A model generated the notes under the pieces. That model was not told where the DNA came from and ran no database searches. It worked only from the letters and a program-made list of their open reading frames with translations. Below are positions 45,191 to 63,280 of a stretch of 64,000 nucleotides of DNA, in pieces; position 1 is the stretch's first letter, and each line of letters opens with the position of its first letter. Position numbers and translations under genes: made by a program. This DNA is from an uncultured Porphyromonadaceae bacterium (GTDB taxonomy: Bacteria > Bacteroidota > Bacteroidia > Bacteroidales > UBA11471). The stretch is from contig URHG01000007.1 of NCBI GenBank assembly GCA_900547555.1, positions 454 through 64,453 on the forward strand, in the 5' to 3' direction.

Positions 45191-46304
45191 ATGAAAAAAA
45201 ATTCTTATTGCATTCTCATTTTGTACTTCCTGTTTGTTTCTTTCAACGTATTCAGTATTAATGTATTCGACCAGGATAGAAAAAAGTTTTTCTCTTTTGA
45301 TGAAAAAATAATCAATGGTACTACCGGAACGCCCCTGGGTGGATTCGGTTGTGGCGGAATAAAATTCAATGCCAATACAGGTACGTTTGCAGTCATGACA
45401 GCCCCTCCGGCCGACGCTTACGATTTTATGGAGAAAAAGGGGACATACTTTCAACTATACACCGAACGAAACGGAAAAATAGAAACAAGAAAAATCTTAA
45501 CCGCCTCAAAAACAAATGATCGTCCGAACGACGATGCGATTTGGCCTTTGCACTTCGTAGATTTCGGTTGCATCAACGGCATACAAATATCATTGACCGG
45601 TATCTCACCATTGGATAACCAAAACTACGAAAACATGCATCTGCCCTATGCCCTATACGAAATCAGCCTCACCAATACAGGAAACACAGATGCGACAACG
45701 TCATTTGCTTTCCAATGGAACGACGATAAAACGCCTTTCATTAACCTACATAAAAAAGGATTTTACAATGACGAATGGTGTATTTTAGTGAAAAGCAATA
45801 TCGGAAAAGCAAAAATATCGATCGGCGATGATACCGACAACCACTTCTTATCCGACGGAGAATGTTCTCTATCCGACACCTCATCTCCGACAAGAAAAAT
45901 CGCTGTAAAAGCGACTTTAAATGCACATGAAACACAAAAAATACATCTTGTATTGGCTTGGTACAATCGAACGGATCCCGAAATAGCATTCTATAAAAAC
46001 AAATACCAAAATCCGAAAGGTATAGCAGAACATGGTATGAAGGTGTTCTCCTCCTTAAAAAACAATGCCGAAAAATTGGTAAACGGTATTCGAGAATCGA
46101 ACTTGCCCGATTGGTTAAAAAATCAGGCATTGAACACACTGGTCAATATCGTTACAAATTCCATGTACAAAAAAGACGGAAGAGTTGCATTCGCAGAAGG
46201 TCAATGGACCTGTTTTGGAACAATGGACCAAATGTGGTTATCGAGACAAATCATAAACATGTTGATACCCTATTATGCCTGGCAAGAACTCCACTACTGG
46301 GCAA
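45191..46304 (+). pseudogene. GH116-like (GBA2-type) glycosidase, 5' fragment interrupted by mobile element
   Basis: GTPLGGFGCGGIKFN resembles the GH116 N-terminal domain signature. The frame reads ...QELHYWA, then runs into foreign sequence and stops at 46322-46324. It continues in frame at 63281. Confidence 0.7.
46298..46304. repeat. left copy of 7-bp direct repeat TGGGCAA (target duplication / att core)
   Basis: An identical heptamer lies at 63281-63287, in the same reading-frame phase of the split gene. Confidence 0.65.
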
Positions 46305-46631
46305 CAAGATATAAAATTATATAACAAACTGATTTACTATATTTTATGGCGTGAATAAAAGAGTAGTTTTGTAATTTAGTACCATTTTAGCATCACTATT
46401 TAGCCATCGTAAATAGAATCAAGGGATGGCGCAAATGGCATAGGACAATTAACTTCTTTGGCTGCATAATCCACATTCGTTTACCGTCCTCAAATCAGTC
46501 AACACCTTCCGGAGATAATCAGACGGTTAATTTATAGCCACAACAAATAGATATTCGCTGATTTTATATTTGTATTGCGTAGTTTTTCTACAATAATCGT
46601 GTTTATAATTTGTTGTATGAGATTTTATTTG

Positions 46632-46667: not shown

Positions 46668-47966
46668 ATGATAGCAGAGTTCAGCATTGAGAATTTTTTC
46701 TCCATTAAGTCGGTTCAGAAAATCAGTTTTGAACCATCGGCAGATACTTATATGTCTGATGAGTACTCGTATGAAGTTAAGGACGGTGTAAGATTGCTGA
46801 AAGTGGGCATCATCTATGGTGCCAACGCTTCCGGTAAAACGAATATATTAAATGCCATTGAATTTTTCAAGATGCTGGTTTTGAGAATGCCTAAAGACAG
46901 GACTGAGAAAACCGGGGTTGTCCCTTTCATGTTAGATGACACTTCAAGAAACGAAAAGACAAAGATGTCAATGGTGTTCTATATCAATCAGTCGAAGTAC
47001 ATTCTTAGTTTTGAATTGGATGCAAAGCATATCTATTCCGAGACATTGATTGTTTATGATTCCATTCGCCCGACCAAGCTGTACAACCGAAGTTATGATG
47101 CCGCAACAGATTCCACGACCATTGACTTTGGCGTAAACCTGAAAATGACAAAGAAAAGCCAGGATGTGATTTCCGGCAACACTATCAATAATTGCAGTGT
47201 GCTTGCCGCATTTGGCAAAAGCAACGTGGAACGGACAAGGCTGAATGATGTGTACGATTATTTTGCCAAGCAGGTAAAAGATGTATTGGCTCCCGGTATG
47301 TTGCTTTCGGGATATGTCAAATCACGATTGGATAAAGACGAGGCAGGAGATTTGAAGAAATTCATTTTAAATTTCCTGAAAGCGTCCGATTTCAATATAG
47401 AAGATGTGGTATTACATGAAGAGGAAGAGCTGATTACACCTGAATTGGAACAACTGATTCAGAATGCCCCTATTGATAAAGATGCAAAGGCTGAAATGCT
47501 TAGAAAGGGGAAAATTACAAATACGGAACTGACCTTCAAGCATAAGGCAGGCGATAAAGTATATGATTTGTCGGAAGAATACGAGTCCAATGGCACCATG
47601 AGGTTCTTGGGAATGGCGGTGATACTGAATTTCTTGTTAAAGACCAATCGGTTTGTGCCCATTGATGAAGTGGAGACAAGTATTCATTATGAACTGTTGG
47701 CTTATTTCCTGAAAGTCTTTCTGGCAAACAGTAACGGAACATCCCAAATGCTTCTGACCACACACGACATCAATCTTCTCAACGAGGATTTCATTCGCCG
47801 TGATACGATATGGTTCACCGACAAAGACGAACTTGGCGAAACTAAAATAGTACGCCTATCTTCTTTGGGACTGCATAAGAATCTTTCCCCATACAATGCT
47901 TACAAGCAGGGAAAATTGGTAAAGTTGCCGTTCTTGGGTAGTCAGTATATCAACCTGAATGACTAA
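46668..47966 (+). CDS. AAA_21/ABC-type ATPase (AbiLi-like)
   Basis: Walker A GANASGKTN, Walker B-like VPIDEVETSIH, and LLTTHD (H-loop region). Confidence 0.75.
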   Translation: MIAEFSIENFFSIKSVQKISFEPSADTYMSDEYSYEVKDGVRLLKVGIIYGANASGKTNILNAIEFFKMLVLRMPKDRTEKTGVVPFMLDDTSRNEKTKMSMVFYINQSKYILSFELDAKHIYSETLIVYDSIRPTKLYNRSYDAATDSTTIDFGVNLKMTKKSQDVISGNTINNCSVLAAFGKSNVERTRLNDVYDYFAKQVKDVLAPGMLLSGYVKSRLDKDEAGDLKKFILNFLKASDFNIEDVVLHEEEELITPELEQLIQNAPIDKDAKAEMLRKGKITNTELTFKHKAGDKVYDLSEEYESNGTMRFLGMAVILNFLLKTNRFVPIDEVETSIHYELLAYFLKVFLANSNGTSQMLLTTHDINLLNEDFIRRDTIWFTDKDELGETKIVRLSSLGLHKNLSPYNAYKQGKLVKLPFLGSQYINLND

Positions 47967-48573
47967 TGATATGGGACGGACAGTAACAAAAAGTATCGCC
48001 ATCATAGGCGAAGGAGAAACGGAATGGTTCTATTTCGATTCTCTGAGAATTGCGTGTCGCTATCCTTTCAAGGTCGCTCCGGATTTTCCGCAGCATAGCG
48101 ACATCAATCATATACTGAAACTGGTAGAATCTTATTTGAACAAGCAATATGATTATATTGTATGCCTGTTTGATATGGACAGGCTGTATCAATATCCTTC
48201 CGAAATGCAGTTGTATCAGCGGGCAAAGAAAGAGTATAGCAAGAAGAAATATGCCGGAAAGGTGATGTTTATAGAAACGAATCCTTGCACGGAATTTTGG
48301 TTCTTGCTCCATTTCTTGCCTAATGTGGCCTGTCGGCGATATGAAAGTTACGACCAACTGCTTCCCGAATTGCAGAAATACATGCCGGGATATGAAAAGA
48401 CAAAACGATATTTCATACGCATCAACCTCTATAAATACCTGACAGAGAATGGTAATTTGGAACGGACGATGTTAAACTCAGAAAAGTTGTGCCAACTCTG
48501 CAAGGAATCGCCGGAGGATTTGAAGGCGTATTCGGAGGTACATAAGGTTATAAATCTGTTGAATAACGTGTAA
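47959..48573 (+). CDS. RloB-like protein (AbiLii-like)
   Basis: IAIIGEGETEWFYF matches the RloB N-terminal (C/G)EGxxTEx.YF motif. It overlaps the ATPase stop by 8 nt. Confidence 0.7.
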   Translation: MTNDMGRTVTKSIAIIGEGETEWFYFDSLRIACRYPFKVAPDFPQHSDINHILKLVESYLNKQYDYIVCLFDMDRLYQYPSEMQLYQRAKKEYSKKKYAGKVMFIETNPCTEFWFLLHFLPNVACRRYESYDQLLPELQKYMPGYEKTKRYFIRINLYKYLTENGNLERTMLNSEKLCQLCKESPEDLKAYSEVHKVINLLNNV

Positions 48574-48641: not shown

Positions 48642-50345
48642 ATGTCAAATAAAAATCTTACAAATAATCAACTTCTACTCAAAGAAATAATATCTCAAGA
48701 ATATGAAGACAACAATCAATTTGCCTCACTTGATACTTTTTTTGAATTATTTTCAGCGGGTCAAATATTAAAAGATTACGCATTTAGTAATGAAGAAATA
48801 GAAAGTGGCCTTACAGGCGGAGGAAATGATGGCGGTTGTGATACTGCCTACGTTCTCTTAAATAATGAAATTATTACTTCTGACCAAATAGAATCTCTTG
48901 ACTGTCCCAAGGGTTCATCTTTGCAGTTTATTATAATCCAGTCTAAGAATACATTGGGTTTTGGTGAAGATGCTATTATGAAATGGAAAACAATATCAGA
49001 TAATTTGTTAGAAATGTCTAATGACATAAACCAATATAAAGAAAGATATAGCGAGGGAATCAGAGATGTTTTCGTTTTGTTTCGCGACGCAATGACAAAA
49101 TTAATCACTAAGCAACTTAAAGTTTCTTTTAAGTATTATTACGTAACCTTGGGAATTGAAGTACATCCAAATGTATTGGCTCAGGCAGACGAACTTAAAG
49201 ATATTGTCCGAAAGAAATACCCTAGTGCTACAATTTCTGTACAGTTTGTAACAGCAGACGAACTAATGTTATTATATAATAGTGAACCTGATGTTAACAT
49301 AACTATAACTTTAGCCGACCAAGCTATTACACTTGGTAAACAGAATGAATATGTGACACTAATAAATATAGCAAACTACTATAAATTCATTACAGACTCC
49401 TCTGGTAATCTATTAAAAGGTATTTTTGAATCTAATGTTCGTGATTACCAAGGGAATAATTCGGTAAATTCATGCATAGCAAACACCTTAAAGAATAAAA
49501 ACGCAGAGGATTTTTGGTGGTTAAATAATGGTATTACCATATTGTCTGATAAAATCACGCCAATTACAAGCAAACAGTTATCTATTGATAATCCTGAAAT
49601 CGTTAATGGACTTCAAACGTCCACGGAGATATATAATTATTTTTCAGAAAACAAAGATAAGTTAGATAGTGAAAATAGGAATGTGCTTGTAAGATTTATA
49701 GTTCCAGATACAGAAGAGGTTCGTGATGATATTATATTTGCAACTAATAATCAAACCAATATCCCAAAATCTTCACTCAGAGTTACAGATGCAATACATC
49801 TCCAAATAGAGATGTTCTGTAAAACGAGAGGTTTATATTATGATAGGAGAAAGAATTATTATAAAAATCTCAAGAAAAAAGCTACAGATATTATTAGTGT
49901 ATCTTTCTTGGCTCAGTGTCTAATAACCCTATTATTAAGAAAACCAGATTTTGCTCGAGCACGACCATCAACATTGCTTACGGATGATAGAACATATAAT
50001 CAATTATATGCTGAGAATGGTAATTTATTAGTCTATTATAATGTTGGCAAACTCGGAAAGAAGGTGCAAGGCAATTTACGCAAGACGCCAGATTGGACCT
50101 CATCTGAAAAAAATGATGTACTATTTTATGTGCTATATGGTGTTGTTATAAAATTATTAGGTAAAACAGATATTAAACCTGTTGATATTGTAAACATAGA
50201 CTTAAATACAGTATCAGAAGAATTTATTGATTCAATAAAATGGAAGGTATATCATAAATACAAGGAATTGGGAGGCGATGGCCGTATTGCTAAAAGTCCT
50301 AATTTTATAACCTATATAGATAAAATTATAGGGGATAACGAATAA
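48642..50345 (+). CDS. AIPR (abortive infection phage resistance) family protein
   Basis: NVRDYQG...N, WWLNNGITI and IVNGLQTS motifs are typical of the AIPR C-terminal domain. Very AT-rich gene. Confidence 0.7.
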   Translation: MSNKNLTNNQLLLKEIISQEYEDNNQFASLDTFFELFSAGQILKDYAFSNEEIESGLTGGGNDGGCDTAYVLLNNEIITSDQIESLDCPKGSSLQFIIIQSKNTLGFGEDAIMKWKTISDNLLEMSNDINQYKERYSEGIRDVFVLFRDAMTKLITKQLKVSFKYYYVTLGIEVHPNVLAQADELKDIVRKKYPSATISVQFVTADELMLLYNSEPDVNITITLADQAITLGKQNEYVTLINIANYYKFITDSSGNLLKGIFESNVRDYQGNNSVNSCIANTLKNKNAEDFWWLNNGITILSDKITPITSKQLSIDNPEIVNGLQTSTEIYNYFSENKDKLDSENRNVLVRFIVPDTEEVRDDIIFATNNQTNIPKSSLRVTDAIHLQIEMFCKTRGLYYDRRKNYYKNLKKKATDIISVSFLAQCLITLLLRKPDFARARPSTLLTDDRTYNQLYAENGNLLVYYNVGKLGKKVQGNLRKTPDWTSSEKNDVLFYVLYGVVIKLLGKTDIKPVDIVNIDLNTVSEEFIDSIKWKVYHKYKELGGDGRIAKSPNFITYIDKIIGDNE

Positions 50346-50457: not shown

Positions 50458-53400
50458 TTACATCGGTTTTATCATTGATTCTATGAAAGTAATTTCTTCT
50501 TCTGAAAGTTCGTATTTCGCATAGAGTTGTCGGTCAATTTCGGCAACACTCTTTTCCCAATCAATGTCGGATTTTGAGGTAAAGTCTTGCAACGGAACAA
50601 AACGCCACGTTTCTTTACTATTATCTTGTGTAACTTTCAATATTCCAAGCAATGTTCTGGCAAATTTAGATTTGACATATTTCAGAGCAGCCATAGCTTC
50701 TGTTTGTTCATTAAATGTACCAATCCCTATAAAGGATTGCGTATAACCGATTAACGGTTCACCGATTAACGGAGTTGACAGCACCTCTCCTATAGCTCCA
50801 GTACCATTACTTTTAGGAACTATAACTTTCCATTTACCTAAACAAGGATGGTCTTCGATGAATGACGAATTTATCCATCTAATCTCTCTGACATTCTTTA
50901 TCAAACCAAGCATTTCAATATCCTCAGCCTGCATTTTTTGCACATGGAATATTTCACTAAGCCCAAAAATGGAAGTAGTTAAACGACGTTCATTACCATT
51001 GCTGCCAATTCTCGATTTTAATTCTGGATGTTCTTTATAAAGAATGCTTAAATCAAATTTGTTTTGCGGATATATAATGTTGCTTAAAGGAGTAAAGGTC
51101 TCATTATTAGCGACCACCTTTCGGTAAATACCATTAAGTTCTGAATATGCTGTAAATGAGCCAATCTTTCCAAAAGAGTAATTAGCGTCACGATAGCATA
51201 CAGCAACACCTCCTTTTATATCAACATTTGGGAAAACATCTGTACTTTTTGCTTTATACCATATTATCTTAAAATGCTCATCGTTAAGCATTTTAAGATT
51301 CCAATCATGGGGTGTCTTGCCTGCATCAAACAGATAACGTGCGGGAGTAATAAGAGTAGCCTTGTCTGATATTCTAAATGAGACATCCATAAAATAGTTG
51401 TAAACTGGAGTGTCGCTTGTCCGTTCTGTTATTATCTGATACGGTGGATTCCCCACTATCGCATTGATTTTCATATTCTTTATTCCTGTTCTGTCCGTAA
51501 TAAATTTATCTACCTGCTTGATAAAATGTTCCGGTTTGTTTTTGATTTGATTGATTAAGTCCTCGAAGTATCGGGTGTTTACCTTTGCTTTTCGGAAACC
51601 TATAAGGGTGCGTTTGGTAATGCTCTTTGCCATCGGAGTTTTGCAGATGACAAAGATGTTTTCAGCCACTACCTTGTCCCATATTCGTTGTTCATCTTCG
51701 ATACTTGACACCGAAAATAATGAGTTCTTGACCCTTGTGCGATAAATGCTATATGCCATATAAAGAGGATATAATCCAGACTTTGAATTTATTTCAAGGA
51801 TTCGTGAATCTGGGGCAAACACATTGGCTGTCACTTCGCCACGGTCAATGAAACGAGGGTCGGACAAGGTGGTTTCATAGTCCTTTTCAAAGAAGTTATA
51901 TCCTCCCAAACAATCGCCAAGGTGCATGTTCACCACACGCCAAGGCGTAAGCACCGTTTCCTTGTCGGGATTGCGGAACGTGCTGAATATATCCGTTATA
52001 CGCTCGATGCGTTCCTCCACACTAAGTTTGTCCGCGGCACGAGCCATGGCACGGATGCGCTTGCCTGCCGCACAGAATATCTCCGGATCGTAATATTTCT
52101 TTATGCTGTTGAACTTCTGTTTGGTTACGCCTTTGGGCATGAACTCCTCCCATGACTGAGAGTCAATGAGGGAAGCGAAGTTGTCAATGGTTATCTCTTG
52201 TGATTCATCTTGTAACTCTGCACCGTAGATAAGCAACGGCATACGGATGGAGATACCCCGAAGAATGGAGATGGCAGCCTCGCGGTTCTCCTTTTTCTTC
52301 TTTAGTTCCGCGAGACGCTGCTTTTCTTCCTCTGTCAATGGTTGCTTGTCCCTGCCTCTCTTCTTGGATTTCTTTTCAAGGTCTTCAAGTTCCTCGTATT
52401 GCTCATCGGTCAGTCCTTGGTTGTTGATGTCCACCTGATTGGTCTTTGGCATTGCCTTGGTTTGGCCGATAATCTTTTTCAGGTCGTCAAACTCCTGCAA
52501 TTCCAAGTCGTTGAGCTTCATCAACTCGTCATTATACAGGCTCCTGTCCTCGAAACCGTTGCGGACAACCCTTTCCACATAAACACGTTTAAGCTGTTCC
52601 AACATCTTGGGTACATCGAACTGGCTCATCTTGGAGCCTTCGATGGAGATAATCGGACAGAAGTTCAGGAACTCGCCCATAATCTTACGGTCGTTGCCGC
52701 TGGTCTTTCCTGCCTTGGCAGAAATCTTTGCTGTCTCGGCAATGACTTTCAGTGTTCTGTCAGGAGCGAAGTCAAACACATAACACTGCTCTTTGACCCT
52801 TCCGTTGATGGTGGCAGGTGTCTGCACACGGAAGATGGTCTGCATATAACTTGATGTGGCGGTATTATAAGAGCCGGACAACATGAATACGCCCGTCCAC
52901 GCCTTGACACTGACACCCGTGGTCAATCGTCCGCAAGACAAGGTAATGGTACGGGTGGCATCAGGGTCTTTGCCGATGGCTTCTTCCACCGCAGCAAGAG
53001 CATCCTTGCTCTCTTCGTCCTCGTCACCGTCTCCTGCCACATTCACCACCTTGAAATGCTGGAATACAGGATGTGATTGTAGTAAAGCACTCATGGCACG
53101 AGCCTCCTTCACACCCGGCAACATCCATAGCGTATGACGGAAGATGTTGCGGTATTCCTCGTTGGCAAACGGATAGCAACTGTCCTTGTCCTCCTTGGAG
53201 ATAAGATTCAAAAATGCCTTCACATCTTTTTCATGGATGAAAGTTCCGTTATCATTGACCCGAAAAAACTCTCGGAAGTTGAAAGCCACATCTTCATCCA
53301 CGAACTCATGGAGTAAGCGTCCAAGGTCGTAGGTATAGATGTTCATCGTAGGTAGAGAGGCGTATGGATTCGGATCACCGAAATGGGTCAAATCCCATGA

Positions 53401-54426
53401 AGCCTTTGCCCGTTGCTCCATCACATAGTCCCAAGTGTAAATCTCGTCCTCCTTGAAGTCGTCCAACAGGTTGAACGGAGTGCCGGAAAGTCGCAGTATC
53501 TTTGTATTTGCTTTTGTCAGTTCCTGCATGACAGCCTTGCCGAGTTCCGTCTGTGTCCCTTCGTGCGCCTCGTCCACGATGATGCAATCCCAAGCTGTGG
53601 CAAACACTTCATTGTTCTTGTCGAAGTTGCCGCCCACAAGTTCAGAACCGCGCAAATCCTGCATGGAAGCGAAATACACATATTGGCATTTGCCCTGTTT
53701 TGCTCTCGCTTCAAGTGAAGCATGGCTGTCACCATTGTTCTTTGAGCCGTATGCAAAACAGGGACAGTCATAGAATATCTTGCCGAAATCCTCGAACCAG
53801 CCGCTATCCACCACAGGGCGATGAGTAAGAATCAAAGTGCGGCTGAAATCCATGTCTTTCACCACCTGCAAGGCCGACAATGTCTTGCCGAAACGCATCT
53901 TGGCGTTCCAAAGCATCTGGTTACTTTTCCTGAATTGCTTCTTGGTCTTTTCGATGGCTTCCCGTTGTTCGGGACGGAACACAATCGGTGTTTGGTCGTG
54001 TGAGACTTCGGCAGAAGACAACGATTCCCGACCTTCCTTTACGGCTGTTATTGCCCGCTTGACGGTTTCAAGGTCGGTGATGAACCACTCGTTGGCTTTG
54101 TTCTCGGTATCGAATATCTTTTTCCTAATGCCGGAACGTTCCAAAACGCTATGTACTTCCTTGTCGTTGAAAGAGCACAAGCCCTTTTTGCTGTTGTATA
54201 TCGTAAGTTCCGTATATAAGAGGTCGTATGCAATGCCTGCCGTTTGCGTATATTGGTTGATACGTTTCTTCGCGGACTCGTTGAGAGCCTTGCTGTTCGG
54301 AGCAAGACCGAAGACATTGTCATTGTCACAAGTGGCCTCGCCCACTTTCAGGCATCCCCTGTGTGCAGCATCATTGATGCGGAACACATATATCAGTTTT
54401 AATTTTAGTGAAGATGTGAATTTCAT
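50458..54426 (-). CDS. fusion protein: T5orf172/GIY-YIG-like domain, SF2 DEAH helicase, K/E-rich linker, TaqI/Eco57I-like N6-adenine methyltransferase, TaqI_C-like TRD
   Basis: aa 11-30 LIYVF...LKVGE and aa 112-115 NEWF fit T5orf172. Helicase: AKMRFGKT (175-182), DEAH (285-288), SGTP (314-317), QTIFRVQTP (529-537). Charged linker about 675-716. MTase: motif X-like ETVLTPWRVVNM (823-834), motif I-like ILEINSKSGLYPL (876-888; compare M.TaqI VLEPACAHGPFL), NPPY (993-996). C-terminal LYAKYELSEEEITFIE resembles TaqI_C-type TRD ends. Confidence 0.8.
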   Translation of the reverse strand: MKFTSSLKLKLIYVFRINDAAHRGCLKVGEATCDNDNVFGLAPNSKALNESAKKRINQYTQTAGIAYDLLYTELTIYNSKKGLCSFNDKEVHSVLERSGIRKKIFDTENKANEWFITDLETVKRAITAVKEGRESLSSAEVSHDQTPIVFRPEQREAIEKTKKQFRKSNQMLWNAKMRFGKTLSALQVVKDMDFSRTLILTHRPVVDSGWFEDFGKIFYDCPCFAYGSKNNGDSHASLEARAKQGKCQYVYFASMQDLRGSELVGGNFDKNNEVFATAWDCIIVDEAHEGTQTELGKAVMQELTKANTKILRLSGTPFNLLDDFKEDEIYTWDYVMEQRAKASWDLTHFGDPNPYASLPTMNIYTYDLGRLLHEFVDEDVAFNFREFFRVNDNGTFIHEKDVKAFLNLISKEDKDSCYPFANEEYRNIFRHTLWMLPGVKEARAMSALLQSHPVFQHFKVVNVAGDGDEDEESKDALAAVEEAIGKDPDATRTITLSCGRLTTGVSVKAWTGVFMLSGSYNTATSSYMQTIFRVQTPATINGRVKEQCYVFDFAPDRTLKVIAETAKISAKAGKTSGNDRKIMGEFLNFCPIISIEGSKMSQFDVPKMLEQLKRVYVERVVRNGFEDRSLYNDELMKLNDLELQEFDDLKKIIGQTKAMPKTNQVDINNQGLTDEQYEELEDLEKKSKKRGRDKQPLTEEEKQRLAELKKKKENREAAISILRGISIRMPLLIYGAELQDESQEITIDNFASLIDSQSWEEFMPKGVTKQKFNSIKKYYDPEIFCAAGKRIRAMARAADKLSVEERIERITDIFSTFRNPDKETVLTPWRVVNMHLGDCLGGYNFFEKDYETTLSDPRFIDRGEVTANVFAPDSRILEINSKSGLYPLYMAYSIYRTRVKNSLFSVSSIEDEQRIWDKVVAENIFVICKTPMAKSITKRTLIGFRKAKVNTRYFEDLINQIKNKPEHFIKQVDKFITDRTGIKNMKINAIVGNPPYQIITERTSDTPVYNYFMDVSFRISDKATLITPARYLFDAGKTPHDWNLKMLNDEHFKIIWYKAKSTDVFPNVDIKGGVAVCYRDANYSFGKIGSFTAYSELNGIYRKVVANNETFTPLSNIIYPQNKFDLSILYKEHPELKSRIGSNGNERRLTTSIFGLSEIFHVQKMQAEDIEMLGLIKNVREIRWINSSFIEDHPCLGKWKVIVPKSNGTGAIGEVLSTPLIGEPLIGYTQSFIGIGTFNEQTEAMAALKYVKSKFARTLLGILKVTQDNSKETWRFVPLQDFTSKSDIDWEKSVAEIDRQLYAKYELSEEEITFIESMIKPM

Positions 54427-54432
54427 ACTGCA

Positions 54433-55449
54433 CTATTTTATGAGGTCGATAAATCGGATTCGTTTTCCCATCTTTCCCGCTTCAGGGTCTTTGGCCCGCC
54501 AGTCCTTGATTTGGCAATAGATACCATTATGCCTGCGGATGTCATCTTTCTGACAGCCTTCGCATTGACTGACTTCTTCCCTTGTCCCGAACAAGTCGGC
54601 TACAATAGTCCGGCGTTCACCGCAACTGTTTGGGATGACACCTTTAAGCCCGTCCATCTGCCAGACGTTCCATGAAATGATGTAGGCGATATAATTGATG
54701 GATTTCAACAAGGGTCGCTTGCCGAACTTTTGTTGATAGTATTCGATAAAGGAAATAAGCATGGATTCACGGGCAATCAGCAAGTTATCGCCTTGCCATT
54801 CGTAAGCGTAAATGCTCTTATACGCTTCCTGTACCCATTCCAACCATTTGCCGGAAGTTTCCGTATTTTCGCCTACAATCCGCAACTTGCGGTCAAGCAG
54901 CCCGATACGCTGTTCTAAGGGAATAGCCTCCCCCGTTGTGGTGTCATATCTGCTTATAATATACGGGGCTTCCCCGCAGGTTATCTCCAATCGGTTGTCA
55001 CGTACATAATCTTTCCAAGTCTTACCTTCCGGAAATTGAATTTTCTCTGAGTTGGGTCTCCACCGATGACAACCCTGTTCGTCGGTGTACTCCGTATTGA
55101 ACACATCCTTTCTTCCAAACCATGCTTCATCGATCAGGTTGTTCTGCGCATTGCATATCCATGACGGAGTGAACACCTCTGCCATTTCTCGCGAACGTGC
55201 GGTTTGGGTGTCACGACTTTTGAGAATACGCGGCATGATGACATGCCCGTTATCTCCAGTAATAAGACAGGGAAGAATTGGCGAATCATATTGATACCCT
55301 TCGCCCAGATATTCATAATCGGAAGTAGCCCAAAAGATATTGCGCTGAATATCCTCCTTGCTCGTCGTATGGTCTTTGAGCAGGATATTCAACAGTTCGG
55401 GCGAAAGCCGAAAGATACTATCTTCCAATATATCAACTTCAACAGGCAT
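54433..55449 (-). CDS. methyltransferase N-lobe-like protein lacking the NPPY catalytic motif, with a C-terminal Cys cluster
   Basis: AEVFTPSWICN (90-100) resembles motif X. LEITCGEAPYI (154-164) aligns with M.TaqI LEPACAHGPFL. IYAYEWQGDNLLIARESML resembles motifs II/III. No (D/N)PP(Y/F/W). C-x19-C-x2-C-x12-C at 276-312. Its stop is 6 nt from the start of the fusion gene. Confidence 0.5.
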   Translation of the reverse strand: MPVEVDILEDSIFRLSPELLNILLKDHTTSKEDIQRNIFWATSDYEYLGEGYQYDSPILPCLITGDNGHVIMPRILKSRDTQTARSREMAEVFTPSWICNAQNNLIDEAWFGRKDVFNTEYTDEQGCHRWRPNSEKIQFPEGKTWKDYVRDNRLEITCGEAPYIISRYDTTTGEAIPLEQRIGLLDRKLRIVGENTETSGKWLEWVQEAYKSIYAYEWQGDNLLIARESMLISFIEYYQQKFGKRPLLKSINYIAYIISWNVWQMDGLKGVIPNSCGERRTIVADLFGTREEVSQCEGCQKDDIRRHNGIYCQIKDWRAKDPEAGKMGKRIRFIDLIK

Positions 55450-55469
55450 TTTATATCGGGTTTATGAGT

Positions 55470-55485
55470 ATCTCTTGATAAGAGA
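55470..55485. repeat. left inverted repeat ATCTCTTGATAAGAGA
   Basis: Perfect reverse complement of 55646-55661, checked base by base. Confidence 0.9.
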
Positions 55486-55645
55486 GCCATCCCGAAGAAA
55501 TAAGCACTAATAATCAGTGCTATAAGAACCCGATTTGACGGATTTACAAAACAGATCCTCGCAAAATACCTTTCATATATCATTATAAATGAGGATTGAA
55601 CACGGTTTTTGAAATATTATGCGTACCTTTGCGAAATAAACTATA

Positions 55646-55661
55646 TCTCTTATCAAGAGAT
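55646..55661. repeat. right inverted repeat TCTCTTATCAAGAGAT
   Basis: Reverse complement of 55470-55485. Confidence 0.9.
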
Positions 55662-55700
55662 TCGTCTTTTCGCTCAACACATTTCACCATAAATATCCGG

Positions 55701-56912
55701 TCAAAAATCTTTCAGGATAAGGCTGTTCGCCTTGTCCACCACGCTTGTGTCAAGCGATGCGAGATAGATGCGCGTGGTCTCTTCCGAATCATGTCCCATG
55801 CCCTCACTGATGACAGAAAGAGGGATGTTCTTGCTCTTGGCAACGCTCGCCCAACAATGCCGGGCAACGTGCATGGTCAGCGGTATGTTCAATCCTGCCA
55901 GACCAGCGACTTCCTTCAACGCCACATTGATGCGGCAGATGGCGTTACGGTATTGTGTCCGCTCATCGGAGCATGGGTTGGTGATTATCGGCAGGAGGTA
56001 GCGGGTGGCCGTATTCTCGCCGTACTTGGCGATGATGTCTTCCATGCACTTCTCCCATTTGACTGTGAGCTGCTGCCCGGTCTTTCTTCTACGGTACGTG
56101 ATTATTCCGTTCTTCAAATCCGATTTTTTCAGATAGGCCATATCAATGAATGACATGCCACGGGTATAAAAGGAGAAGAGGAACATATCCCTTGCATAGT
56201 CCAGATGCGGTTTCAGAGTCAAATCAAGTTCCTTAATGTGCTTGATGGACTTCAATGGAATGGCGCGTTTTACCGTCTTCCCGATGCCAGTGTAAACGTG
56301 CTTGAAAGGATGCTTCTGTTCCGTCAGTTCCTTTTCCACGGCACGGTTGTAAACGGCACGGAGTATGCGCATATAAAAGGAAACCGTGTTGGGGCAGATG
56401 CCCTTGCCTTTGAGCCAGGCCTCGTAAAGCATCATGGTGTTGCCGTCTATCTCGCACAAGAGTATGTCCTGCCCCTCACGGAACTTCATAAAACTGCCCA
56501 ATGCCGCCGTATAGGTTTCTGATGTGCGGACTTTGCCAAGCTGCTTCAACTGTCCTATGATGCCTTGCATGAAACGGAACAGCGATTGTTCGCCCGTTTG
56601 CCCGTTGAACTTCTCGACGATGCTGTCAGCGGAATAAATTCCTCCCTGCCTGTCGCATTGGGCGACTATGGCTTTCAACCGTCCGGTGTCCCAGTCGATA
56701 TGTTCCGCCACTTCACGGAGATACCGTTTTCTATTTTCGCCGATTTCGGGCAGGATTTTAACAGAGGAAGTTCTCTTGTCCCATTCCGTATCAAATATGC
56801 GGTAGTCCGTCTTGACTTGGCGGACTATGCGCCCGTGGATTACCTGATAATATATGCTGCCCTCCCTGCCGCTCGCGGTGGAAGGACGAAATTTCACTTT
56901 TATGGATGCCAT
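55701..56912 (-). CDS. tyrosine-type site-specific recombinase (Bacteroidales integrase family)
   Basis: N-terminal arm-binding-like MASIKVKFRPS...GSIYYQV. Catalytic HVARHCWAS...GH...TRIY. Confidence 0.85.
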   Translation of the reverse strand: MASIKVKFRPSTASGREGSIYYQVIHGRIVRQVKTDYRIFDTEWDKRTSSVKILPEIGENRKRYLREVAEHIDWDTGRLKAIVAQCDRQGGIYSADSIVEKFNGQTGEQSLFRFMQGIIGQLKQLGKVRTSETYTAALGSFMKFREGQDILLCEIDGNTMMLYEAWLKGKGICPNTVSFYMRILRAVYNRAVEKELTEQKHPFKHVYTGIGKTVKRAIPLKSIKHIKELDLTLKPHLDYARDMFLFSFYTRGMSFIDMAYLKKSDLKNGIITYRRRKTGQQLTVKWEKCMEDIIAKYGENTATRYLLPIITNPCSDERTQYRNAICRINVALKEVAGLAGLNIPLTMHVARHCWASVAKSKNIPLSVISEGMGHDSEETTRIYLASLDTSVVDKANSLILKDF

Positions 56913-60344: not shown

Positions 60345-60431
60345 AATCCACTGATTTTAAGTTCATGGCGGCAAAGGTAGGGCAATAATGAAACCTGTGA
60401 ATTTGTGGTATTCTGTGAAATGACACCGAAT

Positions 60432-61718: not shown

Positions 61719-63089
61719 TTATATTTTGATGATACCCTTGAAGTCCTTTAATGCTATGACGGCCTTTTCCTCCGCATCCAGTTTCAGGTAGCGGCGCAGT
61801 TGCGCCTCGCTGCTGTGTCCGGTGATGGCTTGGATGGAAGGCAGAGGGACGCCAGCCTTATACGCGTTGGTGGCGAAACTCCTTCGGGCTGTATGGGAAA
61901 GGAGCATGTCGCAGAACCTCCTTCCCCGTTTGGGGTTGAGACGCTTCTCGTCAAAACCGCAGTCATGTGTCCAGCCGAGCAACAGGCCGATGGTCTTCAC
62001 CAGCTTGTTCATTTCATTGGGATGAACCGGGGGCAACTTGCCGTCATACTTGGCAAGTATGGCTCTCACGCGCCTGTCAACGGGGATATAGACTTTCTTT
62101 TCCGTCTTCTGTTGGGTGATGAGTATGAACTCAGTGCCGCCGATTTCCGTTATCATGTCCTCGCATATCCTTGAATAGTCGGAAACACGCTGCCCGGTCA
62201 GGCAGCCCACGACGAAAATGTCCCTCACGTGCTCCAGTGTCCTGATATGGGTGATGCGGCATTTGGAAAGTTGTGCCAATTTCTCGTCCTCGCTGATGTC
62301 AAGTGATTCCAGTCTCTTTTTCACAGCTTCCTTGGTGGAAAGGTCAAGGTCAAGCATTTCCTGTATCTGTTCCGGCGTGAGATAGATGTTGTCCACTTCC
62401 TCCTTTTTCGGCACGAAGTCGGAATGACGGAAATCATCGCATTTGGTCAGCTTGTCCTCGTAAGCCGCCTTTGCCACCGTGCGGACATCGGTCATATACG
62501 AGTTGATGGCGTTGGGCATCAAGCCCCGTTCCTTCCAGTAACCGACAAGGCTGTTGCGTGTCTCCATCGTCATGTCATCCAGTCCGAGTTTGCGGTGGGT
62601 TTCCTTTTGGTAGTTAAGAATCTGTTTTTGGATAATGCGCAGACCTTTTATATAGGCAGGTGATACTTTCACGGTACGGCCTTTCTTGGTGCGCCGTCCG
62701 GTTTCCATGTCTTCTATATAAGAGGTAAGGAAATCCTCGAACAGCATCCTGCCTTTGGGCTTGACCTCCACAATCTGTATCATTCCGTTGAGCACGTCGT
62801 GTTTCACGCTCTCGATGATGTTCTTGGCCTCCTTGGGGTTGAAGCCTTCCGCCTCGAATGCCGCCTTTATCCTCGCGAGGACTTGGGCGAACTGCCCGTA
62901 CTTTATCCCGATACTCGACATCAGGGCTGACGAGGTGTATTGCAGGCTGCGGTACTTTTCCCATTCAAGCTGCTTGATGGTGAAGCCCGTCACGACTTTC
63001 ATGTTCGCCTTTCCGGTGCGCACACGGGCATAGATGGAACCGTAGTCCTCCTTTCCGGCCTTGGATGATTTGATGAAGATGAAATCCAT
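61719..63089 (-). CDS. tyrosine integrase at the right end of the element
   Basis: Arm-binding-like N terminus MDFIFIKSSKAGKEDYGSIYARV. Catalytic HTARRSFAT...GHSS...LRRYLK. Start at ATG 63089, with TACCTTTG (minus strand) at 63117-63124. The ORF-track start at 63260 is an upstream run-on. Confidence 0.85.
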   Translation of the reverse strand: MDFIFIKSSKAGKEDYGSIYARVRTGKANMKVVTGFTIKQLEWEKYRSLQYTSSALMSSIGIKYGQFAQVLARIKAAFEAEGFNPKEAKNIIESVKHDVLNGMIQIVEVKPKGRMLFEDFLTSYIEDMETGRRTKKGRTVKVSPAYIKGLRIIQKQILNYQKETHRKLGLDDMTMETRNSLVGYWKERGLMPNAINSYMTDVRTVAKAAYEDKLTKCDDFRHSDFVPKKEEVDNIYLTPEQIQEMLDLDLSTKEAVKKRLESLDISEDEKLAQLSKCRITHIRTLEHVRDIFVVGCLTGQRVSDYSRICEDMITEIGGTEFILITQQKTEKKVYIPVDRRVRAILAKYDGKLPPVHPNEMNKLVKTIGLLLGWTHDCGFDEKRLNPKRGRRFCDMLLSHTARRSFATNAYKAGVPLPSIQAITGHSSEAQLRRYLKLDAEEKAVIALKDFKGIIKI

Positions 63090-63280
63090 ACGCGATATAT
63101 CTTGGTTACTGTGATGCAAAGGTACAAAATATATCCCGAAATATGGTATCAAATAGTACCAATATTTTCTAAAACCGTGAAATTTCGTGAGTATGCAAAC
63201 CAAATGAAAACATCTACAAATAACTGATATACAAAGATAACCTATAAAACGGAATTTCACTGAATATATTTAGTGAATAG

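Follow-up and report, generated by a model that had tools for sequence, protein, structure and literature searches.

The stretch of DNA analysed here, referred to as the window, is 64,000 nucleotides from an uncultured Porphyromonadaceae bacterium, and we have followed up a short non-coding segment in it that appears to be an invertible promoter, or inverton, set ahead of a restriction-modification (RM)-like operon. The segment is 160 bp long (55486-55645) and lies between the ATG of a minus-strand open reading frame (ORF) of 338 amino acids (55449) and the stop codon of a tyrosine recombinase ORF (55701). On the minus strand the gene for this recombinase, a presumed invertase of 403 amino acids (55701-56912), precedes the segment, and beyond the segment stand the two genes of the operon. 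The first (54433-55449) encodes the 338-amino acid protein, which is methyltransferase-like, and the second (50458-54426) a 1322-amino acid protein with a helicase, an N6-adenine methylase and a specificity region, resembling a Type IIG RM enzyme. As captured in the window, the segment is in what is predicted to be its OFF orientation, with its promoter directed toward the recombinase gene. Contigs and loci compared with the window are identified by L numbers.

The segment is bounded by the sequence ATCTCTTGATAAGAGA at 55470-55485 (the operon-proximal site, IRL) and by its exact reverse complement, TCTCTTATCAAGAGAT, at 55646-55661 (the recombinase-proximal site, IRR), the latter 39 nt past the stop codon of the recombinase gene. 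This is the sole such repeat pair within the whole window; when ATCTCTTGATAAGAGA was searched for with up to three mismatches, there was, besides the two arms overlapping each other, a single unrelated match with three mismatches. The match between the arms stops at 16 nt, with no further base pairing up on either side, so the original prediction of a perfect 16-bp inverted repeat (IR) around 160 bp, between the operon start at 55449 and the recombinase stop at 55701, is exact. What had been missed is that each arm is itself a near-palindrome, TCTCT-TGATA-AGAGA at 55471-55485 in IRL and TCTCT-TATCA-AGAGA at 55646-55660 in IRR, and that, compared as direct repeats, the arms still share 82% identity. 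It is thus the asymmetric 5-nt centre alone which makes the arms inverted and gives them polarity. An Rfam search of 55300-55850 returned nothing credible.

Within the segment, on the plus strand at 55624-55631, is the Bacteroides-type -7 box TACCTTTG, which is the only TAnnTTTG in 55450-55700 and sits 14 nt inside IRR, facing outward and antisense to the 3' end of the recombinase gene; with one further base, TACCTTTGC (55624-55632) fits the -7 consensus TAnnTTTG(Y). A weaker box, TACCTTTC, lies at 55567-55574, and the minus-strand form, CAAAnnTA, does not occur in 55450-55661. When the segment is mirrored about the arms, the strong box comes to lie on the minus strand at 55507-55500. It is then 50 nt ahead of the operon ATG (55449), a distance made up of the 14 nt, the 16-nt site and 20 nt. 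The two boxes, the absence of a minus-strand counterpart and the place to which a flip would bring the strong box had all been put forward in the original prediction and agree with our re-scan, as does the recurrence of the octamer in the window, where TACCTTTG has 10 copies against 1.6 expected from shuffles (none of 100 shuffles reached 10), including minus-strand copies at 60372-60379, upstream of the HTH_17 (Xis-like) gene, and at 63117-63124, upstream of the integrase gene. Because the promoter in the window aims at the 3' end of the recombinase gene, the operon is predicted to be OFF; the box is probably the operon's main promoter, and its geometry suggests that expression of the operon would depend on orientation. 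A scan for sigma-70 promoters returned nothing, as expected for Bacteroidetes.

The recombinase contains the Pfam domains Arm-DNA-bind_5, Phage_int_SAM_5 and Phage_integrase, and NCBIfam gave sub-threshold Xer and integron matches only. A homologue alignment search confirmed 591 relatives in one-genome-per-species contigs, and the family counts that follow are from the best 80 (57-97% identity), which derive from Bacteroides, Phocaeicola, Prevotella, Alistipes, Parabacteroides, Muribaculaceae, Odoribacter, Dysgonomonas and others. An inverted TCTCT-N5-AGAGA pair enclosing 149-239 bp was found 3' of the recombinase in 58 of the 80 loci, its first site beginning 28-121 nt beyond the point where the recombinase match ends. 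Of the 22 loci without a pair, about a dozen offer less than roughly 170 nt of downstream sequence, and at least five lack a pair despite 300 nt or more. Across the 58 loci there are 33 different 5-nt spacers, and in all except one locus (57/58) the two arms have the same spacer. The core site of a tyrosine recombinase consists of short inverted binding arms around an asymmetric centre, and the crossover region must be homologous between the partners. Conserved arms with a locus-specific centre that is matched between them therefore make the 16-bp repeat of the window two core-type sites in inverted orientation.

The promoter box is held in place across the same loci. Of the 58, 50 have a perfect, outward-facing TAnnTTTG inside one site, at a distance of 12-17 nt (mode 14) from it; 43 of these are OFF, with the box directed at the recombinase, and seven are ON, with it directed at the cargo. 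The genes downstream are almost always co-directional with the recombinase. Column consensus over 49 related promoter regions is TTTgca.TATTTTg.GTA.cTTTGCA, in which a TTTG stands 12 nt upstream of the -7 box; the window has its TTTG element in this family-consensus position, on the plus strand at 55608-55611, and it is a putative part of the promoter.

The RM-like character of the operon was considered gene by gene. The 338-amino acid protein matches the PADLOC model MTase_II (E 4e-124) and its relatives carry the NCBI name 'restriction endonuclease subunit M', while Pfam, NCBIfam and PDB sequence searches gave no match. In the 1322-amino acid protein, Pfam places ResIII at residues 149-318 and Eco57I at 922-1065, and PADLOC assigns it to REase_MTase_IIG; NCBIfam and PDB sequence searches returned nothing, and a weak resemblance of its N-terminus to T5orf172/MUG113, below cut-off, is the sole hint of a nuclease domain. 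Its first ~1000 residues are almost identical to those of a protein encoded in L152 (8483-12487), with 75% identity over the whole alignment. The C-terminal ~320 amino acids (window 50458-51420) are unrelated to their L152 counterpart, a pattern as in specificity-domain swapping. Pfam, PADLOC, the NCBI names and this swap bear out the defence-type operon that had been proposed; as a prediction its RM-like nature is well supported, and it would presumably restrict phage. The switch ahead of the L152 copy has a different IR (TCTTTCTTGGAAAGA) and an invertase that is far diverged (59% identity), which indicates transfer of the cargo between switch modules. Variants of the RM-like enzyme with 1327 and 1337 amino acids also exist (L004-L006, L008). 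We considered whether the 1322-amino acid protein could be a diverged copy of the Type ISP enzymes that follow an invertase of 97% identity, and rejected this: there is no significant similarity between them, so the cargo of the window is truly different.

Evidence that the segment flips came from assembled sequences. Metagenome contigs were scanned for IRL-N(145-175)-IRR, a pattern blind to the inner orientation, a second set comprised contigs encoding the exact 338-amino acid protein, and a third was one IMG/VR contig; orientation was compared only among contigs whose flanks are 97-100% identical to the window. The orientation of the window was present in 39 contigs (30 from metagenomes and nine from the exact-protein look-up) and the flipped orientation in 13 (12 from metagenomes and the IMG/VR contig), with breakpoints exactly at the arms. 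Two contigs, L013 and L046, are the in-silico flip of window 55430-55701 save for two mismatches, and L076, whose segment is in the window orientation, shares these two single-nucleotide polymorphisms. For six different alleles of the segment both orientations were found, which indicates that inversion has happened repeatedly. In a further metagenome contig (L122, 7560-7960) the 3' end of the recombinase gene lies on both sides of the segment, an assembly-graph path that would be expected only if both orientations co-exist in that sample. On the evidence of these assemblies the segment is a real invertible element, and it presumably also switches in the source strain itself. With exact flips in public assemblies, and with both the promoter box and the recombinase linkage kept across Bacteroidales, the inverton, the promoter and the recombinase adjacency of the original prediction are all supported; the OFF call follows from the geometry of the box and matches the majority state among the relatives.

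Two other observations were made on these contigs. The IMG/VR contig (L207, 6261-6452; IMGVR_UViG_3300029690_000371) is catalogued as viral and carries a relaxase, the invertase, the inverton in the ON state and the RM-like operon; it is probably a mobilizable element, not a phage. In addition, the 160-bp segment is often 89-96% identical to that of the window where the 300-bp flanks are 97-99% identical (L060, L072, L084), which suggests that the segment evolves faster or is exchanged between elements.

We consider it very probable that the locus is a tyrosine-recombinase-driven invertible promoter that imposes ON/OFF phase variation on the two-gene RM-like operon of a ~17-kb mobilizable element. 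In this mechanism the 403-amino acid recombinase, encoded immediately upstream, would bind TCTCT-TGATA-AGAGA and its complement, the asymmetric 5-nt spacers setting the two sites in inverted orientation, and would exchange strands within the sites such that the 160 bp flips. The Bacteroides-type promoter on the segment (TACCTTTG), 14 nt inside one site, would then fire outward through that site: in the state seen in the window it would run into the 3' end of the recombinase gene, leaving the operon OFF, and in the flipped state it would stand 50 nt upstream of the ATG at 55449, with the operon ON.

Several observations weigh against this interpretation. The exact allele of the window was found only in the window (OFF) orientation. 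The canonical -33 TTTG, at a spacing of ~20 nt, is absent, with no TTTG 19-21 nt upstream of the box; the published definition of such promoters allows a 'close match', so that the missing canonical spacing does not exclude membership of the family. The remaining points concern transcription into the operon from elsewhere and the identity of the flipping enzyme, and each leads to an alternative explanation.

It is conceivable, if unlikely, that the segment flips and yet the operon is mainly read through from the recombinase and mob genes, or transcribed from an unrecognised promoter, so that the flip merely modulates expression or chiefly regulates the recombinase by antisense. The mob genes through to the 1322-amino acid gene are all on the minus strand with short gaps, and read-through from these co-directional genes could possibly express the operon in the 'OFF' state; an antisense role would fit the promoter of the window orientation, which fires into the recombinase gene. 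A hairpin might block such read-through, as AGCACTGATTATTAGTGCT followed by the T-rich TATTTCTT (55493-55521, minus strand) was matched in a scan and would be terminator-like on the operon strand, ahead of the operon, in the OFF orientation only. Related palindromes (CTGATTATTAG or CTAATAATCAG) are present in some relatives in either orientation, so that an insulating hairpin is not kept in orientation, and we rejected 55503-55521 as a conserved directional terminator on this ground and because the scan is confounded by the palindromic recombination sites. Read-through as the main source of expression is also disfavoured by the -7 box, which in 50 of 58 relatives, with cargo unrelated to one another, keeps its distance of 12-17 nt from one site and invariably points outward, as would suit a promoter meant to serve any gene placed past the site. 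In published relatives, moreover, the resistance phenotypes follow the orientation (PMC8748976).

A second alternative, which we regard as improbable, is that another recombinase flips the segment in trans, either the integrase of the element (61719-63260) or a host invertase, and that the 403-amino acid gene has another role. Bacteroides is known to have global invertases, Mpi being one (cited in PMC11761130), and the IR pair of the window also occurs, identical, around a 172-bp chromosomal promoter segment that has no recombinase homologue nearby and is flipped once (L080), which means that adjacency is not strictly required. Against this, a homologue is linked to a site pair at 28-121 nt in 58 of 80 loci from many families, the spacer of the site changes as the recombinase diverges, and the published family is itself defined by adjacency of the invertase (PMC8748976). 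The 403-amino acid recombinase is thus presumed to be the enzyme that does the flipping. That the repeats are palindromic operator or terminator hairpins, with the flipped contigs being assembly artefacts or one ancient fixed inversion, is a reading we give hardly any credence, for although each near-palindromic arm could form a hairpin of 6-7 bp, it is effectively refuted by 13 independent contigs from different studies with breakpoints exactly at the arms, by six alleles seen both ways and by spacers that co-vary between the arms in 33 variants, and a 16-bp repeat would be shorter than typical assembly k-mers.

A phase-variable promoter of this kind, driven from a mobile element, has close published relatives. 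Yan, Hall and Jiang (2022) described Bacteroidales antibiotic-resistance genes under invertible promoters on integrative and conjugative elements (ICEs), with an invertase immediately upstream, a -7 TAnnTTTGY, similar IR motifs across classes and hypervariable downstream cargo; these switches were mostly OFF in metagenomes (92/96), as the window is predicted to be, and the resistance phenotypes switch with orientation (PMC8748976). The nearest comparison is IP-ARG-1, whose IR motif, TCTCTCTTTAAGAGA, and invertase sequence are given in Supplementary Data 2 of that study (PMC8748976). The recombinase of the window is 50% identical to the IP-ARG-1 invertase over its full length (E 4e-148), and the catalytic residues of the C-terminal domain, R251 (YTRGMS), R351 (VARH), H374 (GHDSE) and the nucleophile Y383 (RIYL), are kept between them on alignment inspection only. 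Like the arms of the window, TCTCTCTTTAAGAGA fits TCTCT-N5-AGAGA, and the two also share the invertase immediately upstream, a short invertible region (~165 bp in IP-ARG-1) with TAnnTTTGY, location on a mobile element, hypervariable cargo and a mostly OFF state. They differ in the spacer (CTTTA in IP-ARG-1, TGATA in the window) and the inner sequence; in the element, IP-ARG-1 being on an ICE whereas the window has a ~17-kb element that is mobilizable and carries only a relaxase; and in the cargo, which is antibiotic-resistance or glycan genes as opposed to an RM-like operon, the window having no upxY remnant downstream. The full-length homology and the fit of the IR motif place the switch of the window within the IP-ARG-1 invertase/inverton clade.

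Similarity to other switches is more distant. The capsule and surface-protein invertons of Bacteroides (Tsr family, with IRs such as GTTACTTCTTAGGTAAC) also have a tyrosine invertase adjoining a promoter-bearing segment, and an internal palindrome with an asymmetric centre is likewise found in their arms (PMC12118408). They nevertheless have another IR sequence, segments of ~280-345 bp and a chromosomal location, and they control glycans and lipoproteins via UpxY/NusG-like genes. In fimS of E. coli, much as is proposed for the window, tyrosine recombinases (FimB and FimE) are encoded beside a short invertible promoter that turns a downstream operon ON or OFF, but the recombinases are unrelated, the IRs are 9 bp, the promoter is of the sigma-70 type, and the locus is chromosomal and controls fimbriae. 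Phase-variable restriction by a site-specific recombinase is known in gut Bacteroides from the Type I RM hsdS shufflons of B. fragilis (Ben-Assa et al., 2020; PMC7641763), although these invert within coding sequence and alter specificity, whereas the flip in the window is of a promoter and is predicted to turn the whole system ON or OFF. We found no report of invertible promoters tied to such defence cargo in the searchable literature, subscription journals being outside the search. The novelty is in the cargo, the type of switch being already published. The biological notability that the original prediction attached to a phase-variable defence system is accordingly tempered, since the switch family is on record for antibiotic-resistance cargo on Bacteroidales mobile elements; the defence cargo is the part that is new.

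The same switch, or a closely related one, stands ahead of other cargo. In metagenomes the exact IR pair of the window encloses at least eight unrelated inner sequences, seven of them with a recombinase homologue ending ~30-170 nt away. A GNAT gene and a Zorya II system (ZorA2, ZorB2, ZorE2) lie behind a 98%-identical invertase and a 92-94%-identical 160-bp segment, with one copy OFF (L065, 790-4015) and another ON (L075, 78-4223). In Phocaeicola plebeius DSM 17135 and in a B. xylanisolvens metagenome-assembled genome, an invertase with 97% identity is followed by Type ISP RM, and full-length Type ISP enzymes (~1660 amino acids: Mrr_cat_2, ResIII, ISP_coupler, N6_Mtase, Type_ISP_C) follow invertases of 60-97% identity (L127-L130, L135, L136, L176 and L185; about 7.4-12.4 kb in L127), the promoter-proximal arm of the Type ISP copies having one mismatch, at its last base. 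Behind invertases of 69-72% identity, with the exact IR of the window, is a trio of an Hsp70-family protein (756 amino acids), a LysM protein (160 amino acids) and a protein of 1471 amino acids (L091, 5046-8024; L101, L105, L107). The 1471-amino acid protein has no Pfam or PADLOC match, and the trio is a candidate for an uncharacterised phase-variable system. Further cargo in other copies includes TerD pairs and a five-gene cluster without assigned function, and among 100 downstream ORFs scanned as a pool there were also SNF2/HKD (DrmD-like), FHA and kinase, fimbrial and DUF3575, and NusG/radical-SAM genes. Whether the recombinase and inverton form a portable phase-variation cassette at a cargo slot of Bacteroidales mobilizable elements, placing many anti-phage systems under stochastic, default-OFF switching, is a proposal for and against which we see the case as evenly balanced.

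The chromosomal locus mentioned above shares the exact 16-bp IR pair of the window around an unrelated, promoter-bearing segment of ~172 bp. It has an AraC-type gene of 162 amino acids and a DUF4988 protein of ~940 amino acids and lies beside kdtA and gltX (L016, 4088-4291; L078, 6611-6814; L097, 6570-6773; 58 further loci; and L080, 3298-3501). Its promoter faces away from the AraC operon in 60 contigs and is flipped in one (L080). Since this chromosomal surface-protein inverton has identical sites and no recombinase of its own, the invertase of the mobile element may flip host loci in trans.

As to what such a switch could mean for its carriers, defence has costs in autoimmunity, in a barrier to the uptake of useful DNA and in the burden of expression. 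A promoter flip would act as bet-hedging for the element and its host, with most cells OFF and a minority pre-armed against phage, and the related antibiotic-resistance switches behave in this way. The original prediction had likewise offered, as speculation, that phase variation may limit the cost of autoimmunity or allow the element to spread ahead of restriction. If the pattern proves general, a reading of Bacteroidales genomes would overstate the defence repertoire that is expressed, methylomes would vary within a clone, and both phage-host prediction in the gut and phage therapy would have to account for the state of the inverton. TCTCT-N5-AGAGA with a -7 box 14 nt inside offers a simple rule for finding and orienting such switches from sequence. 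Another Bacteroidales inverton may not surprise a specialist, yet diverse anti-phage cargo under a default-OFF switch would be timely and is directly testable.

A further element inside the segment is CTGTTTTGTAAA (55543-55554, minus strand), a degenerate copy of the motif TTGTTTAGCAAA. With up to two substitutions, TTGTTTAGCAAA is present in 44 of 51 related invertons in a strand-specific manner (L127-L206); in most of these invertons (about 35) it starts ~69-70 nt before the promoter-distal site (dist_to_end 87-91), and the copy in the window is at the same distance. Given that the invertase has an Arm-DNA-bind_5 domain, it is a reasonable guess that CTGTTTTGTAAA is a candidate accessory or arm-type binding site.

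The switch and its operon belong to a longer set of minus-strand genes, which runs in the order integrase (61719-63260), HTH_17 (Xis-like), NikA-like, MobA/VirD2 relaxase, a 262-amino acid ORF, the 403-amino acid recombinase, the segment, and the 338- and 1322-amino acid genes. A GH116 glycoside hydrolase gene is split around this set, with its N-terminal part at 45191-46324 and its DUF608 catalytic region from ~63.33 kb to the end of the window, which points to a ~17-kb integrated mobilizable element with a small defence island. A search for direct repeats of at least 14 nt flanking the ~17-kb element returned none. The island also holds two more defence units outside the control of the inverton, an AAA_21 ATPase with RloB (46668-48573) and an AbiU with an AIPR domain (48642-50345), both of which are on the plus strand and convergent with the RM-like operon.

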